A stretch of DNA of 64,000 nucleotides from Candidatus Nanohalarchaeota archaeon. Its GTDB lineage: Archaea; Nanohalarchaeota; Nanosalinia; Nanosalinales; Nanosalinaceae. The stretch lies in assembly GCA_022729235.1 (NCBI GenBank), contig JALDAJ010000001.1, forward strand, positions 416,001-480,000, read 5' to 3'. A program made the translations under genes and the position numbers. Positions within the stretch are counted from its first letter, which is position 1; each line of letters opens with the position of its first letter. Positions 18,250 through 45,023 of the stretch are shown piece after piece. The notes under the pieces were generated by a model. That model made no database searches, had not been told where the DNA came from, and saw only the letters and a program-made list of their open reading frames with translations.

Positions 18250-18665
18250 TATGATTTTCCGGAATCCCTGGGAAAGCAGAACCTCTAGAGGGAGAGGTTT
18301 CTCTTCGCGGAGCCGCGATTTTACAGCGCTGTGGCTGTAACTATATTCGCTTCTGCGTGAAGTCCGGTCTCCATTCGAGTGTTGTCGTATTCGCGTGCTT
18401 CAAGTTCGGCTTCGAAGTCTCGTGTGTTGGCGTCGATTGTGGGCACCTTTTCTGGCTGTGAGTGTTGGATGTCATGATAGGTTCCGGGGACGGGCACCAC
18501 CTAGTAAGCAGTACCCGTCTTTAGAAAGTTCCACGGTGTAGAGGCGGCAGAAACTTTCCCTGTTTTTTGTTGTTTTTCGCGGTCGGCGCAACCAGCTCCT
18601 TGCGGAGCCAAGGCGTCATCCCACTTTACTCAGCCAGAATAAACTTAATATGGGAAGCCTTGGCC
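18250..18665 (-). ncRNA. Candidate structured RNA / structured leader
   Basis: Several stems (18489-18519, 18524-18558, GCAA-loop hairpin 18594-18609, 18607-18664) whose mismatches resolve as G-U on the minus strand. Confidence 0.5.
18321..18500 (-). CDS. Small acidic ORF (59 aa from GTG, or 38 aa from ATC at 18437)
   Basis: ...DANTRDFEAELEAREYDNTRMETGLHAEANIVTATAL*; halophile-like composition; below the ORF-track cutoff. Confidence 0.4.
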   Translation of the reverse strand: MVPVPGTYHDIQHSQPEKVPTIDANTRDFEAELEAREYDNTRMETGLHAEANIVTATAL

Positions 18666-18745
18666 TTGGTAGCGTTATAATTAGGTCTCACTAGATCCAC
18701 TGACACGTTTCCAGTAAGCCATTGATTAGATTGAGCCAAGACCAT
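18626..18745 (-). CDS. Putative leaderless 39-aa upstream ORF
   Basis: TTTAAA box about 26 nt upstream of ATG; MVLAQSNQWLTGNVSVDLVRPNYNATKAKASHIKFILAE*. Confidence 0.35.
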   Translation of the reverse strand: MVLAQSNQWLTGNVSVDLVRPNYNATKAKASHIKFILAE

Positions 18746-18786
18746 TTCTATGGAAACCTTGGACTTCGAGGTTTAAAAGGGTACTG

Positions 18787-39972: not shown

Positions 39973-41070
39973 ATGATTCGAGAGAGAGTGAAAGACATCC
40001 AGCTATCGATAAGAAAGATATCGAAAAAGGCGGAAGAGCAGGAGGACTGTATCCGTTTAGATATCGGACAGCCAAGCTTTGACACCCCGGAACACGTCAA
40101 AAAAGTTGCGAGGGAGGAGATGGACCGGTTCCAGGGTTACACCGCGGACAGAGGGATAGACGAACTGCGGGACGCTGTCGCCAGAGAGGAATCGGGGAAG
40201 AAAGGCATTGAGGCAGAACAGGAGAACATAATGATATCTGCCGGCGGGATGGAGGCGCTTTACTCCGTGTTCGCAACGGTTCTAGATCCGGAAGATAAGG
40301 CGGTCTTCAACGACCCGTGCTGGGGTCCCTACAAACTGATATCGGAAGTAAACGGGAACCGGTGGAGCCAGGTAGACTTCTTTGAAAACGGTGAGCTTAC
40401 GGATGAGGCCAGGAAGGAGATACGGGACGCGGAGCTGGTGCTCGTGAACACGCCTAACAACCCTACTGGGAAAGTACTGGAAAAGGAAGAGGCGAAGGAA
40501 ATCGCCGAGGTCGCAGAGGATAGCGATACTTTACTGGTCTCGGACGAGGTGTACCACCGACTGACTTACGGAGAGGAACACGTTTCTCCCGCCCGTTTTA
40601 CGGATGAATCTGTTATCATCGGGTCGATGTCGAAAAACCATGCGATGACCGGCTGGAGGGTCGGATGGGTGAACTCGTCACCGGACTATGTCGATAACTT
40701 CTCCAAGGCTTCCCGTGGAATGGTCGCGTGCCCGCCTGCTATAAGCCAGTTCGCGGCGGTCGAGGCGTTGAAAAACGACTCACACGTTGAAAAGATGAGA
40801 GGCGAGTACGGGGAGAGGCGCGACATATTAGTGCAAAAGATGAACGAACTCGGCTGGGAATTCGTCGAGCCTGAAGGAGCCATCTATGCCTTCCCGGACA
40901 TCGGCAGAGACTCCTGGGATTTCGCCCTGGAGATGGTGGAAAAAGGAGTTTCCATAGTCCCGGGTGAGCCTTTTGGACCTGGAAGCGATGAAAATGTCCG
41001 GATATGCTTCGGATCTGTCGAACAGCGCGATATAGAGAAGGCGTTTGACGTGCTTGAGGACGAGGTCTAG
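39973..41070 (+). CDS. PLP-dependent class I/II aminotransferase
   Basis: GQP.F, NNPTG, DEVY, SK..AMTGWRVG. Confidence 0.93.
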   Translation: MIRERVKDIQLSIRKISKKAEEQEDCIRLDIGQPSFDTPEHVKKVAREEMDRFQGYTADRGIDELRDAVAREESGKKGIEAEQENIMISAGGMEALYSVFATVLDPEDKAVFNDPCWGPYKLISEVNGNRWSQVDFFENGELTDEARKEIRDAELVLVNTPNNPTGKVLEKEEAKEIAEVAEDSDTLLVSDEVYHRLTYGEEHVSPARFTDESVIIGSMSKNHAMTGWRVGWVNSSPDYVDNFSKASRGMVACPPAISQFAAVEALKNDSHVEKMRGEYGERRDILVQKMNELGWEFVEPEGAIYAFPDIGRDSWDFALEMVEKGVSIVPGEPFGPGSDENVRICFGSVEQRDIEKAFDVLEDEV

Positions 41071-41108
41071 CGAATCCTTTATAAACTTCTTTTTATTAGT
41101 AGTCCAAC

Positions 41109-41304
41109 ATGCGCCGGATAACAACCTTTACGGGTATGCGGAAGGGTGGACGCTTTATCTCAACTAAAGGTGGACGCGTTCTGCAGCTCGACCTCCAGTA
41201 AAGCTAGTTCTGGCGCGGTTTCTGAACTCGACTTTTCTGAAGTAGCTCCAGCTACGCCATCATACATTATTATCCTGTTTATTATCCTGCTGTTCCTGCT
41301 GTAA
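41109..41304 (+). other. Small TM-peptide gene split by one base (30-aa ORF 41109-41201 plus 52-aa GTG ORF 41146-41304)
   Basis: TTTATAAA 23 nt upstream of ATG; removing one T from ACCTTTAC joins the frames into a 64-aa peptide ending YIIILFIILLFLL. Confidence 0.45.
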
Positions 41305-41441
41305 AAGGCGGAGCAGTGGTTCTCGCTTTTTGTCTCAAATTCTAGGGTGAACCACTCTATGACAAAACACAAACACAACACAACTACGCATTACCGCACC
41401 AAAAAACCTGAAAACACGGAAACAGATGCAGGAGAGCAACG

Positions 41442-41729
41442 ATGGTAGAACCAGATCACGATCCGAAGAGGGCGGGTCCCAGCCCCTCTGATTTAGGGTA
41501 CGAACCTGAAACCGCATCCGGACCTGTTTACCAGAACAGCGATGTAAGGAGCGAGCCGAGCCCCGCTTATGACAAAGTAATTTTCAGTTCTGGAGAAGAA
41601 GTAGGATCCTATCCCGAGGGGTCCTACCAGACATGGTCTCCGAGAGAAAAGGCAGAGTTTGATGTAGAAGACGCCCAAGCAGTGGGGCACTTCTTCTCGG
41701 AACAGACTCCTGGAGCCGCGGCTGACTAG
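41442..41729 (+). CDS. Acidic orphan protein
   Basis: GGAG RBS; acidic and Pro/Ser-rich. Confidence 0.65.
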   Translation: MVEPDHDPKRAGPSPSDLGYEPETASGPVYQNSDVRSEPSPAYDKVIFSSGEEVGSYPEGSYQTWSPREKAEFDVEDAQAVGHFFSEQTPGAAAD

Positions 41730-41741
41730 GAGGTGAAATAG

Positions 41742-42071
41742 GTGAACCAAGACAACAGAGTTCAGGGTGTATGGGAGTCCGGAAACAGTGCAGAAGTAGC
41801 CGTCGCAGAAGGATACACGGTTGGAGAGCTACACTCCGAGGCAAGCAGTTCGGAGTACGATGTCGTACCCAGAACTGATAGGTACGGAAACCTGGTGCTG
41901 GACGGATCGGATAAAGAGGTCAAAGGGTTTGTTGAGGATGTATTGGGCGACCAGGGCTCCGTGCTGGATTCGGAAGTAGCAGCTGACGGCGGTAGAAAGA
42001 GGCCTGACCCGGCGCGGAGCGATCCGCGTTACGACGTGGAGACACGGGAGCCGTACACCGGTGCGGACTAA
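41742..42071 (+). CDS. Acidic orphan protein with AADGG motif
   Basis: GGAGGTGA RBS, GTG start. Confidence 0.7.
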   Translation: MNQDNRVQGVWESGNSAEVAVAEGYTVGELHSEASSSEYDVVPRTDRYGNLVLDGSDKEVKGFVEDVLGDQGSVLDSEVAADGGRKRPDPARSDPRYDVETREPYTGAD

Positions 42072-44105
42072 CTACCAGTCGTCCTTGGTAGGGCAGTCAG
42101 GATCGATGCACATGTCGTAAGGCTTCCGCCCTTTCCTTATCACTTTTATTCTCGGCGTGTGGCATTCCTCGCATTCCTCGTCCAGGGACTCGATTTTCCC
42201 GTTCCGTGGTAGCGGATACGTGTTCTCGCAGTCAGGATAGTTGGAACAGCCGACGAAACGTCCGTTGTCAGTCTTTACTATCCTTAGAGTCCCGTCATCG
42301 CACTGGTCGCAAGGACCTAGCTGGCGCCGTCTTTCTCTTTCTGAGTCGATGGTCTCGACCAGTTCGGCGCCTATCTCTTTTTCTTCTTCCTTGAACTTGG
42401 CGAGCACCTCTCCAAGTTCGTCCCTGGCTTCTTCTATGACCTCTTCCGATGTCTCTTCCTCATCTCTTATCGACTCCATTTTCTCTTCGAACTCCCGTGT
42501 CAGTTCTTCTGAGAGGAGTTCGGGGCAGCGTTCCTCTAGGGTTTCTACTATTGCGAGCCCAAGTTCTGTAACCTCTATAGGGTTGTTGTCGATGTAGTTA
42601 CGGGAGTAAAGCCGGTCAACAGTGGCTGCACGCGTCGCCTTGGTTCCCAGGTTGCGTTTCTCCAGTTCGTTGACTATCGAGGACTGTGAGTATCTTCGGG
42701 GTGGCTGGGTCTCTTTCTCCATCAGCTCGAACTCTTCCACATCCAAAACTTGCCCGGTCTCCATCTCTGGCAGTTCCGCCTCCTCCACGTTGACGTACGG
42801 CTCGTAGAGGTCGAACCAGTTCCTCTCCAGCGTGATCTTTGATTTTGCTTTGAACTCGTGCCCGTTAACTTCCAGCGTGAACGTAAGTGTGCGCCTTTTC
42901 GCCGAGTCACCAAAGACTGCGAAGAACCGCTTGACTATAAGGTCGTATACCTGTCTCTGCTGTTTGGAAAGCGAGGAAGGGTGTTCACCTGTCGGGTAGA
43001 TAGCAGGGTGTGCGTCGTCTTTCTTCTTGCCCTGCCGCGGGTATATCTCGTCTTTATCAAGTACTTTTTCAGCGAGTTCCTCGTAGTCGTCCTGTTTCTT
43101 GAGCTTGCCGAGAAGTTTCTCGTAACCGAGTTTGGCAGGCAGTTTCTGTGACTCTGTCCTTGGATAGGATATCAGTCCCTGCTCGTAGAGTTCCTGGGCG
43201 AGGCTCTGGGTCTTCTTCGGCGAGATATTGAACTGTGAGGACGCCTCGCTCTGGAGCCCTGTCAGGTTGAAAGGTATAGGCGTTCCGTGCTTGTAGTCGT
43301 TCTTCTTGATGTTCGTGACCGCTGCAGTCTTTTCCCCTTCAACCTCTGCAAATACCTGTTCTGCGCGCGCCTCGTTCCATATACGGTCCTCCTCGTCCTC
43401 CCACTGCGCATCAAATTCACTGTGTCTCAGGTAAACCTCCCAGTAAGGGTCGGGCTCGAACTCCTGTATCGCACGCTCCTTGTCCGCCAGGACTTTTAGT
43501 GTCGGACCCTGCACGCGCCCGGTTGACAGGGTCTTGTATCGGTTGTTCTCCCTGACCGCCTGCATTAATGCCCTTGAAACGTTAATACCGTAGTAGAAGT
43601 CCAGCACGTGTCTTGTGAGCCCTGCCTGGGTCATCCCTTCGTCAAATGATTCCAGGTCGTCAAATGCATCCTGGAGATCGCCAGTTGTGAGAGTCGAGAA
43701 CTTCATCCTCTGGATACGTTCCTCGGGAGGGTCTGCGATGTGATGGATGACGTTGTAGCCTATGACCGATCCTTCAAGGTCGAAGTCGCACGCGTTGATG
43801 TAGCTGTCCGCCTTTTCTATCTGGTCTTTCAGGTTGTTGTAGTACTTCTTCACGTAGCCTGCGTCATCTGAGGTCTTGAATATAGGCGCCCATTCGACGT
43901 CGAAGACAGGGTACGTCCAGCCTTCGCTTGACTGCTCCAGGTTGAAGACGTGACCGACCGCGGGCGCGATGATTATCCTGCGTTCATCAGTCTCTATAAC
44001 ATAGTTCTTTACGCCACGGTTCTCCTTGATAGAATAGTCTCCCAGCGCCTGCGCTATTCTTGACGCGACCTTCGGCTTTTCACCAACCATCACCGTGGTT
44101 TCCAT
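42072..44105 (-). CDS. topA: DNA topoisomerase IA
   Basis: EKP, D.D.EG, GRVQ, SYPRT catalytic Tyr, C-terminal zinc ribbons. Confidence 0.96.
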   Translation of the reverse strand: METTVMVGEKPKVASRIAQALGDYSIKENRGVKNYVIETDERRIIIAPAVGHVFNLEQSSEGWTYPVFDVEWAPIFKTSDDAGYVKKYYNNLKDQIEKADSYINACDFDLEGSVIGYNVIHHIADPPEERIQRMKFSTLTTGDLQDAFDDLESFDEGMTQAGLTRHVLDFYYGINVSRALMQAVRENNRYKTLSTGRVQGPTLKVLADKERAIQEFEPDPYWEVYLRHSEFDAQWEDEEDRIWNEARAEQVFAEVEGEKTAAVTNIKKNDYKHGTPIPFNLTGLQSEASSQFNISPKKTQSLAQELYEQGLISYPRTESQKLPAKLGYEKLLGKLKKQDDYEELAEKVLDKDEIYPRQGKKKDDAHPAIYPTGEHPSSLSKQQRQVYDLIVKRFFAVFGDSAKRRTLTFTLEVNGHEFKAKSKITLERNWFDLYEPYVNVEEAELPEMETGQVLDVEEFELMEKETQPPRRYSQSSIVNELEKRNLGTKATRAATVDRLYSRNYIDNNPIEVTELGLAIVETLEERCPELLSEELTREFEEKMESIRDEEETSEEVIEEARDELGEVLAKFKEEEKEIGAELVETIDSERERRRQLGPCDQCDDGTLRIVKTDNGRFVGCSNYPDCENTYPLPRNGKIESLDEECEECHTPRIKVIRKGRKPYDMCIDPDCPTKDDW

Positions 44106-44213
44106 ATCCTTGACACTTGAGACCAAAGCTTAAAGATACTTCAGAGAACTCTCCTGTTTTACTACCTCCTGGTTACCAGAACCTTTATAAGCGCCGTTTA
44201 TAAGTGAAAAAGT

Positions 44214-44339
44214 ATGCAGTCGTCCACAACCTTACAGGACGCAGAAACTTCTGAAGCTTCAGGTACTGCGACTGCTGCTATATGGAGATACGCATTTATC
44301 CTGATTATTCTGCTAGCGGTATTTGTGCCGCTTCACTAG
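44214..44339 (+). CDS. Leaderless 41-aa single-TM small protein
   Basis: TTTATAA 23 nt upstream of ATG; MQSSTTLQDAETSEASGTATAAIWRYAFILIILLAVFVPLH*. Confidence 0.55.
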   Translation: MQSSTTLQDAETSEASGTATAAIWRYAFILIILLAVFVPLH

Positions 44340-44504
44340 TGCCTTTTTGCTTTTTCCAACTGGGGTGGCACAAACTGACGCGAGCTAAACAAGACCAAAA
44401 ACTGCGCTGTACTGCGTTTTTCTGTTCGTCTCCTGATTACAGGAGAACTACTGGTTTTTCATCAAAATCTGTAAATCAAACAAACAGAAAGGAGGTGAGA
44501 ACAA

Positions 44505-44699
44505 ATGGTAGGAAGAAATCCGAAGTATATACCTACAGTTCAGGAAAAGGATGACGAGTACGCCGACGCTGTAGAAGAAAGAGTTTACGAGCAATTCAAG
44601 AGACATCAGGAGGAAACCGATGAACGCTTCGACGTAGAAGCCGCGCTCGAAAGAGGAAGAGCAAACTCTGGAGTAGGAAGTACACATTTCGATTTTTAA
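44505..44699 (+). CDS. Small acidic orphan protein
   Basis: GGAGGTGA RBS; T-tracts follow the stop. Confidence 0.7.
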   Translation: MVGRNPKYIPTVQEKDDEYADAVEERVYEQFKRHQEETDERFDVEAALERGRANSGVGSTHFDF

Positions 44700-44771
44700 C
44701 AGCCAGGTACTCTTTTCCCACATATTTTTCTTTATTCTCTATAAAAAGAAAAGAGAAGTAGGGAGAACTGT

Positions 44772-45023
44772 CTAGGCAGCGGTCCTGTAGCCTCCGCTTA
44801 GTGCTCCTGCCAGGATGGATGCCGTGACGATAAGTGCGGCGGAAAGCACCACGAAGTCACCGCTCGGTGCGGCGGCTCCTGTGAACCCTGCCAGCCTGCT
44901 TCCCCAGTCAACCACGAAGACGGTGATGAAGAAGGAGATGATTCCCAGCAGGATGAGTACCACAAAGGCTACTGCGTTTTCTACAAGGTCGTTTAGGATT
45001 CTTGCGACGCTCATGGTTATCAC
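44772..45023 (-). CDS. Small two-TM membrane protein
   Basis: Two hydrophobic helices. Confidence 0.7.
   Translation of the reverse strand: MITMSVARILNDLVENAVAFVVLILLGIISFFITVFVVDWGSRLAGFTGAAAPSGDFVVLSAALIVTASILAGALSGGYRTAA

Follow-up and report, generated by a model that had tools for sequence, protein, structure and literature searches.

In the 64,000-nucleotide stretch of DNA analysed here (the window: Candidatus Nanohalarchaeota archaeon, contig JALDAJ010000001.1, positions 416,001 to 480,000), a leader region beside topA, which we call locus A, is by sequence comparison one member of a nanohaloarchaeal family of amino-acid-specific leaders that appear to be read by the ribosome. Each leader is built around a module, in which a short open reading frame (ORF1) passes through a 12-nt motif to a single sense codon, the sensor codon, and a second reading frame (ORF2) opens within the motif in the +1 frame. 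On balance we lean towards reading this module as a universal, portable +1 frameshift cassette of the Nanohaloarchaea, with the sense codon in the A site as its sensor, so that starvation would make the ribosome translate or unmask the very gene that relieves the shortage.

The 12-mer module and its sensor codon

The census drew on 70 genomes sampled from the phylum, 50 of them from the window's own family (the family genomes), with motifs defined as regular expressions. The relaxed form of the motif, GGTGRAYGYKTT (as RNA, GGUGR-A-YGY-KUU), was derived by comparing the orthologues, identified through protein similarity, of a single GNAT-domain gene. The exact 12-mer, GGTGGACGCGTT, has 49 matches in 27 of the 50 family genomes against a single match for its reversed control, and 44 of these 49 stand in the ORF1/ORF2 layout, the other five lying inside ordinary genes. 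Relaxed matches number 11 in this genome, where the control gives none, and 58 in five other genomes, where it gives six. When an 18-mer version was searched over 185,579 species it returned 24 matches, seven of which fall in records titled Nanohaloarchaea, Ca. Nanohalobium or uncultured archaeon, and the remainder are scattered bacteria at roughly the number expected by chance. Taken as an antisense element to 16S ribosomal RNA, the motif has no site with five or fewer mismatches, and a search for a shared RNA fold around the 12-mer predicted GGUGG to be paired, with no consistent partner.

The frame of ORF1 is tied to the motif. In 42 of the 44 modules there is, within 100 nt, an ATG whose reading runs open into the motif in frame 0, and in the other two such an ATG lies further upstream; ATGs open to the motif in the +1 frame were found in 4 of the 44 and in the +2 frame in none. 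This phase is kept although the distance from ATG to motif ranges from 3 to more than 100 nt, and upstream of the in-phase ATG there is either a TATA element at 29-34 nt or a Shine-Dalgarno-like (SD-like) word at 7-14 nt. From the phasing of ATG and motif we infer that ORF1 is translated. Since triplets can be counted only by translation, a DNA operator or an untranslated RNA motif becomes very unlikely. Past the motif, the median number of open codons is 6 in ORF1, whose stop lies 2 to 26 codons away, 37.5 in the +1 frame (minimum 10) and 12.5 in the +2 frame (n = 88).

In all 39 cases with an amino-acid-specific gene downstream, the ORF1 codon directly after the 12-mer encodes the amino acid concerned, without a single mismatch. 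These cases span 16 gene families, namely 11 aminoacyl-tRNA ligase specificities together with IlvA, LeuA, TrpB, ProC and DapF, with 13 amino acids sensed. In the first set of loci NCBIfam named 29 of the 68 downstream proteins, 17 of them specific for one amino acid, and all 17 agree with their sensor codon (ProRS 6, IlvA 3, TrpRS 3, and one each of ProC, TrpB, TyrRS, HisRS and LeuA), Ile sensors preceding IlvA in all three annotated cases. Four matches come from this genome: ACC before thrS (ThrRS), TCC before serS (SerRS), TTC before pheS-alpha and TGG upstream of trpS (TrpRS). The out-of-sample set was formed by the relaxed-motif sites in the five other genomes, where 42 sites yielded 28 module rows, corresponding to 26 leaders, and 24 downstream proteins; 18 of these proteins are amino-acid-specific, and all 18 match (GlyRS 4, SerRS 3, TyrRS 3, ValRS 2, LysRS 2, and one each of PheRS, ThrRS, CysRS and DapF).

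The leaders also differ in how ORF2 ends. In 23 of them, which we call coupled, the ORF2 stop lies between -49 and +8 nt from the next start, and in 10 of these at -4; the stop/start overlaps of this genome are ATGA (thrS), GTGA (pheS) and TGA-G-ATG (serS). In 36 attenuator-like leaders 30 nt or more separate the end of ORF2 from the next start, and the ORF2 tail holds the sensed amino acid, the residues directly before the stop codon being SIISIIAIIG with an Ile sensor (ilvA), LLLLLALLLLL with Leu, HVLVL with Val plus Leu, and NFSW with Trp. Trp-type tails are non-hydrophobic, with a single W beside the stop, and the ligase leaders have a short ORF2 with neither hydrophobic tail nor hairpin. 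The ORF1 and ORF2 peptides have only the module-encoded residues in common.

Organization and conservation of locus A

Locus A (positions are those of the window, and all of its parts lie on the plus strand) opens with the promoter word CCTTTATAA at 41076-41084, in which the first T of the TATA element TTTATAA (41078-84) is 31 nt from the ORF1 ATG. The word itself is generic, with 14 copies in the 1.03-Mb genome, and the same geometry, a TATA-to-ATG distance of 29-34 nt, recurs in about 24 of the 44 module leaders. ORF1 (41109-41201; 30 aa, MRRITTFTGMRKGGRFISTKGGRVLQLDLQ) is a leaderless-type sensor ORF that runs through two modules, the first (41145-41159) composed of GGTGGACGCTTT and the sensor codon ATC (Ile, 41157-59) and the second (41169-41183) of the exact 12-mer and the sensor codon CTG (Leu, 41181-83). 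ORF2, in the +1 frame relative to ORF1, extends from a GTG at 41146 or 41170 to 41304 (TAA 41302-04); it terminates in a run of Ile and Leu codons (41266-41301, IIILFIILLFLL), and its C-terminal end reads SYIIILFIILLFLL. The ORF2 stop sits in the loop of a hairpin (arms 41287-96 and 41310-19) with a U-rich tract behind it (41320-36), the whole element occupying 41287-41336. There follow an SD-like AGGGTGA (41344-50) and ORF3 (41359-41448; 29 aa, beginning MTKHKHNTTTHYRTKKPENT), whose stop overlaps the ATG of ORF4 (41442-41729; 95 aa), and then ORF5 (41742-42071; 109 aa). ORF4 and ORF5 encode acidic proteins for which NCBIfam and Pfam searches returned no family. The fold of the leader as a whole is unremarkable (z = -1.62), and a tRNA scan of the window found no tRNA gene.

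The first-pass annotation of this DNA had seen here a small peptide with a hydrophobic end, followed by a U-rich tract, an A/C-rich linker, a ribosome binding site and an acidic ORF, and had described a second such copy, locus B, on the other side of topA. The hydrophobic C-terminal stretch is real in both loci, but in locus A the frame opened by the ATG stops at 41201 and the tail belongs to the +1 frame; the tract, spacer, SD and acidic ORF are likewise present in both, but the supposed linker of locus A holds the conserved SD and ATG of ORF3. Since locus A carries Ile and Leu sensors together with an Ile/Leu tail, its apparent transmembrane helix would be a regulatory codon run. The broader suggestion of an undescribed archaeal leader-peptide or attenuation system is partly supported for locus A by its Ile/Leu codons, the hairpin at the stop, the coupled ORFs and the consistent codon matches of its family; what had been missed are the overlapping frames, the 12-mer, the sensor codon and ORF3.

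Conservation was followed through the topA loci of 29 relatives, taken at first with 1.5-kb flanks. The segment 41269-41417 is about 79% identical in other genera by DNA comparison, the ORF3 start being the most conserved DNA of the locus, and a DNA search with this segment found it in 14 of the 70 phylum-sample genomes, all from the window's own family. When ORF4, ORF5, the peptides and the ORF of locus B were searched by tblastn against 30 topA loci, only self matches and weak noise appeared. Ten syntenic loci share a common layout, in which a TATA element about 30 nt 5' of the ATG is followed by a short ORF1 ending in GGRVL plus 2-6 residues and by an ORF2 that begins in the +1 frame within a conserved 15-mer and stays open in all ten loci, though its length ranges from 28 to 51 aa. 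In the 3' part of these loci the ORF2 stop again lies in a hairpin loop, followed by a pyrimidine tract, the SD and ATG of ORF3, and the overlapping start of a variable acidic ORF4. The SD, the ATG and an ORF3 of 24-27 aa (24-29 aa when locus A is included) with its stop on or next to the ORF4 start are present in 9 of 9 relatives. In alignment A3 of the locus-A-type hairpin 85% of the cells pair and 4 of the 10 pairs show a compensatory change, with a covariation score reached by none of 500 shuffles.

Proteins encoded behind leaders that would sense branched-chain amino acids are poor in Leu and Ile. Leu and Ile each make up 1.1% of ORF4, and the median Leu plus Ile fraction is 0.076 for proteins behind leaders of the branched-chain amino acid (BCAA) type (n = 25, of which two are miscalled ORFs) against 0.142 in a proxy proteome, a depletion that fits synthesis during a shortage of Leu and Ile.

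Two further observations concern relatives of this leader. An A/C-rich start encoding a Thr/Asn/His-rich N-terminus (MTTHNY...KP.E) is common to ORF3 of the locus A type and to the N-terminal extension of IlvA behind Ile leaders (loci L033, L036 and L040), its DNA being better conserved than any other part of these leaders, and a same-genus relative (G001) carries a double Ile and Leu module of the locus A type at C14:16029-16082 on the minus strand, about 3 kb past topA.

Entry into ORF2

We regard it as probable that ORF2 is entered by a +1 frameshift resembling that of prfB and triggered by a hungry sense codon. In bacteria, RF2 is autoregulated through a +1 frameshift in prfB, at the site AGGGGG-UAU-CUU-UGA. 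In the mechanism that we propose, GGUGR would serve as an internal SD-like element 4 nt 5' of the P-site codon KUU. Scarcity of the charged tRNA for the sensor codon would leave the A site empty, and the P-site tRNA (tRNA-Val GAC on GUU, or tRNA-Phe GAA on UUU) would then slip by +1 and take the ribosome into ORF2. In coupled leaders the ribosome would terminate on the main start codon and reinitiate there. In attenuator leaders such as locus A (Ile ATC, Leu CUG), a second stall at the Ile/Leu run on the 5' arm would hold the hairpin open, allowing expression of ORF3 and of the coupled, Leu/Ile-poor ORF4 and ORF5, whereas with ample amino acid ORF1 would terminate, the hairpin would form and the genes would stay low. 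Such a two-tier design is coherent only if it is starvation that triggers translation of ORF2.

The motif has the features that such a site would need on its 5' side. When its first five letters were left free they were GGTGG in 85 modules, GGTGA in 5 and GGGGG in 1, with anything else at two or fewer, so that GGTGG or GGTGA accounts for 90 of 91 true modules. The 3' end of the 16S ribosomal RNA reads ...GATCACCTCCA, and GGUGR matches both this end and the 3' half of the SD used in the module leaders themselves (GGAGGUGA). The spacer between GGUGR and KUU is 4 nt, compared with 6-7 nt between GGTGA and the start codons of the same leaders.

The strongest single argument for a frameshift is a re-pairing rule between the P-site codon and the first base of the sensor. 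Among 120 distinct modules, those with a purine-starting sensor (Gly, Ile, Lys, Thr, Val) have TTT as P-site codon in 32 cases and GTT in none, whereas those with a pyrimidine-starting sensor have GTT in 58 and TTT in 30; on the first 95 modules the association gives a Fisher p of 1.5e-9, a value that overstates independence because the modules are interrelated. After a +1 slip, tRNA-Phe(GAA) on UUU would retain 2-3 pairs whatever the next base, and tRNA-Val(GAC) on GUU would retain 2 pairs only before C or U. The restriction of purine sensors to TTT is thus what would be expected if a slipped tRNA must retain at least two of its three pairs. Genes for both tRNA-Val(GAC) and tRNA-Phe(GAA) are present in the genome, and one chance site outside any module has GTT followed by G. 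Quadruplet-decoding or otherwise odd tRNAs were not seen among the 35 predicted tRNAs. Introns are present in 20 of these 35 predicted tRNA genes.

Alternative explanations

The alternative that survives best retains amino-acid sensing as proposed and has ORF2 entered at the invariant GUG of the 12-mer, by initiation or by termination-reinitiation, with ORF1 acting as a regulatory upstream ORF in which pausing at the sensor codon alters access to the GUG. We judge this unlikely, though far from negligible. A GUG stands in all 120 counted modules, and variation in the motif falls mostly at third-codon positions of ORF2, where its consequences are mild (D/N, A/V), while in ORF1 they are radical (G/E, R/C, V/F). 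The ORF2s that encode AbrB-family proteins would, if started at the GUG, begin about five residues before the domain, as a normal N-terminus does, and the early ORF1 stop, at a median of 6 codons, is what reinitiation would favour. However, the GUG lies 8 nt upstream of KUU and is covered by any ribosome that pauses with this codon in the P site, so that starvation would shut off the ligase and biosynthesis genes and leave the attenuator-type leaders off in both states, which is the wrong polarity. There is also no SD at a usable spacing from the GUG, two GGGGG variants lack it altogether, and ORF1 stops that lie 2 to 26 codons away are loosely placed for reinitiation. Entry at the GUG moreover explains neither why P-site codon and first sensor base are linked (32 against 0) nor why only frame 0, and never frame +2, is used.

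Several observations weigh against the frameshift cassette that we prefer. The invariance of the GUG equally fits a start codon, and with it the normal N-terminus of AbrB-type ORF2s. The two GUG-less GGGGG variants are weak witnesses, one having a second, normal module and the other preceding a disrupted ORF. The canonical SD core GGAGG is never used in the motif, and tRNA-Val would keep only two of three pairs after the proposed slip. As regards the census, 14 of the 42 relaxed-motif sites in the out-of-sample set are not modules, the 12-mer of the high-GC family f4 lies mostly within long ordinary ORFs, where it is read as V-D-A-F, and the module instances are mutually related, so that the counts as well as the Fisher p overstate independence. 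For the locus-A-type hairpin, CTG repeats keep pairing high (65-73%) when the pairing is slid by 3 nt either way, and the U-tract on its 3' side, T5 in this genome, is weak in relatives (TTCTCGTTTCT). Acidic disordered proteins are low in Leu and Ile in any case, which makes the depletion behind BCAA leaders ambiguous.

A T-box-like RNA, in which uncharged tRNA would bind an untranslated leader, the UGGA of the motif pairing with the tRNA 3' end and the sensor codon with the anticodon, would act on the same classes of gene (ligases and biosynthesis) with one matching codon per leader, and the motif resembles GGGUGGNACCGCG, which we take to be the conserved T-box sequence. We nevertheless consider it very improbable. 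Only 7 nt separate the codon and the UGGA, the phase between ATG and motif is invariably kept, and a search for an RNA partner common to the motif sites was negative. In T-boxes the last base of UGGN covaries with the discriminator base of the tRNA, whereas here the base that follows UGG or UGA, position 6 of the motif, is an A throughout the 120 modules and shows no variation across 13 sensed amino acids. Searched with Rfam at gathering score the whole window gave no match, and in E-value mode locus A (41000-41500) gave none at E<=10, T-box included, nor did any family match ten ligase leaders at E<=1.

That the small hydrophobic ORFs are type I toxin-like membrane peptides, or arrest peptides of the SecM or MifM kind that monitor membrane insertion, had both been offered by the first-pass annotation, and we now give these ideas scarcely any credence. 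The ORF2 tails of the locus A type and the ORF of locus B do resemble single transmembrane helices, and the ORF2 frame is conserved. Tail composition, however, follows the sensor, being Ile-only, Leu-only or Val/Leu, and the Trp-type leaders, with their single Trp, and the ligase leaders have no hydrophobic tail at all; no conserved arrest motif was seen, and the genes behind the leaders encode ligases, biosynthesis enzymes or unknown acidic proteins and not secretion factors. Least credible is a DNA operator, the near-palindrome GGACGCGTTC, for a transcription factor such as the AbrB-type proteins that have the motif in their own leaders: its core ACGCGT is palindromic and AbrB-family genes bear the motif in at least five genomes, but an operator cannot count triplets over so variable an ATG-to-motif distance or account for an adjacent codon that matches the regulated amino acid every time (39/39), and palindromy is lost in the common variants CGTTTT and CGCTTT.

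Further module leaders and the neighbouring loci B and C

Modules also stand before genes outside the amino-acid-specific set. Small genes of the AbrB family have modules with His (CAC) or Tyr (TAC) sensors (in this genome, G000, at C1:884571 and C1:968181; also loci L054, L079, L112 and L218), and those of the His type are followed, with overlapping start, by a protein of 250-290 aa that matches no known family and has an N-terminus like ..GVP.KGRN..; our guess of HisG was not confirmed by NCBIfam. Among loci L056, L065 and L131-L147, the operon behind Trp-sensor leaders, which often come as a tandem pair, holds genes for a GNAT-domain protein (Pfam E=6.7e-6), an M20 deacylase of the ArgE/DapE family and, in some genomes, also trpS; behind Leu-sensor leaders there are genes for a class I glutamine amidotransferase and for a protein of about 470 aa of unknown kind. 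In this genome two Trp-sensor leaders lie 5' of trpS (C1:622053-623900, L153), the second of which, GGGGGATGTTTT, is without GUG. The ORF behind this second leader is broken near a run of six G, possibly as a decaying gene of the GNAT type or through an assembly error, and we rejected the leader as a decisive GUG-less case because of that break.

Locus B (44182-44699, plus strand) has no 12-mer module. It begins, like locus A, with CCTTTATAA (44182-90; TATA 44184-90), the ATG following 23 nt later at 44214 as against 24 nt (41109) in locus A, and in both loci ACAACCTT(T)AC comes after the ATG, all of which bears out the first-pass description. The leaderless ORF (44214-44339) encodes 41 aa with the tail AFILIILLAVFVPLH, and its TAG (44337-39) lies in the loop of a hairpin (arms 44322-29 and 44367-74), so that the placing of the stop codon in a hairpin loop is confirmed by our reading of both sequences. 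An SD (44490-98) and an acidic ORF of 64 aa (44505-44699) follow. The B ORF matches no NCBIfam or Pfam family, the fold of the whole leader is not unusual (z = -2.16), and the locus has no DNA homologue in 49 family genomes.

The idea that A and B are related copies flanking topA, with a third copy in locus C, is not borne out by sequence comparison, as no significant DNA or protein similarity was found among the three (best blastn match 14 nt at E=0.41; peptides E=0.24). Kinship between A and B is suggested by synteny with module-bearing leaders of relatives only. In four relatives the position upstream of topA is occupied by leaders with Val (+Leu) modules, V/L-rich ORF2 tails, ORF3 and ORF4; by eye, the ORF4 N-terminus in one genome (G018) resembles the B ORF in about 8 of 14 residues, though tblastn finds nothing. 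Locus B reads ...CAG GAC GCA..., as though GGTG had been lost from CAG-GGTG-GACGC. It may therefore be a fused derivative, since loss of GGTG would merge ORF1 and ORF2 into a single leaderless ORF with an I/L-rich tail. Between locus B and tyrS lies an 83-aa membrane-like ORF (44772-45023, minus strand), which is conserved beside topA in several relatives by blastn and tblastx (L003-L006).

Locus C (18321-18778, minus strand) is a separate object, a conserved and covarying structured RNA without a module, and not a module leader or a further copy with the layout of A and B. A promoter is followed by about 330 nt of structured RNA and then by a small ORF, itself conserved (...IDANTRDFE...VTATAL before the stop), and the locus is kept in 44 of the 50 family genomes. 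Of the 62 pairs predicted in its fold, 15 show compensatory changes, and the small ORF varies in a synonymous-looking manner, starting with ATC in most genomes and with ATG in two. The locus contains a complementary triple, GCCUUGGC / CCAAGGCCAAGGC / GCCUUGGC. No Rfam family matches it, the E-value mode giving only a chance match to CRISPR-DR (E=5.5), and identification as the signal recognition particle RNA or RNase P RNA was rejected as both are located elsewhere in the genome. The RNase P RNA candidate (C1:267694-268099) scores 50.1 bits, under the Rfam gathering score of 84, though it spans the whole model. Conservation in relatives, which had been proposed as a check on all three loci, is therefore uneven: the peptide frame and a covarying hairpin are kept for A and the structured RNA for C, but B has no counterpart in the 49 family genomes.

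Relation to known systems and significance

The proposed cassette shares with prfB an internal SD-like element a few nucleotides 5' of a P-site codon able to re-pair in +1, a slowly decoded A-site codon, a zero frame that ends at once, a product in the +1 frame, and the principle that shifting reports the supply of the factor reading the A-site codon. It differs in that the A-site codon is a sense codon varying from leader to leader (13 amino acids), so that the quantity reported would be charged tRNA, and in that shifting would lead into a second-tier leader peptide or couple translation to a separate gene downstream. The host, moreover, is archaeal and has no RF2, and frameshifting here is deduced from sequence.

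Ribosome-mediated attenuation is familiar from the bacterial leaders trpL, leuL, ilvL, hisL, pheL and thrL, which the attenuator-like leaders resemble in their short frame rich in codons for the regulated amino acid, their hairpin and U-rich tract near the leader stop and the biosynthesis genes on their 3' side (IlvA, LeuA, TrpB, ProC, DapF). Unlike these, the module leaders belong to an archaeon and combine two overlapping frames with a single sensor codon behind a 12-mer gate; most often they precede aminoacyl-tRNA ligase genes, and many have a stop/start overlap instead of a hairpin. With the T-boxes of Firmicutes and Actinobacteria they have in common a regulon of ligases and of amino-acid biosynthesis and transport genes and one "specifier" codon per leader that matches the gene, but no Stem I, antiterminator or Rfam T-box match was found for them, their codon is read in a translated frame and their motif is constant across amino acids. 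Coupling by termination-reinitiation at overlapping stop and start codons is known in bacteria and haloarchaea, and the ATGA or GTGA formed by the ORF2 stop and the main start, as well as the overlap of the ORF3 stop with the ORF4 start, have the same form; unlike in ordinary coupling, the ribosome seems to arrive only conditionally, through an upstream frame reached solely from ORF1 by way of the module.

To our knowledge, little is established on how the expression of ligase and biosynthesis genes follows the supply of amino acids in archaea, attenuators of the leader-peptide kind and T-boxes being bacterial, and in open-access papers and preprints we found no earlier description of the module. 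Both a natural "hungry-codon" frameshift switch and, for Archaea, leader control specific to an amino acid would, if our reading is true, be met here for the first time, in a module that builds on a prfB-like site and is functionally the equivalent of T-boxes and attenuators. On trans-frame products made at hungry codons specifically under starvation, a 2016 review of recoding states that "no examples are known" (PMC5009743); should the frameshift hold, these leaders would supply the natural starvation-triggered hungry-codon recoding that the review found lacking.

The leader is sequence-defined, stands before at least 16 gene families and would be programmable by codon, with the prediction that swapping one codon swaps the amino acid sensed, which makes it a possible compact part for synthetic amino-acid sensors. 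It also carries a warning for annotation, in that the hydrophobic "small proteins" of these leaders would be regulatory codon runs. For the host-dependent nano-archaea themselves, the module would mark unknown genes, among them those of the ORF4 and ORF5 types, the GNAT protein, the M20 deacylase, the class I amidotransferase and the AbrB regulators, as responders to named amino acids.

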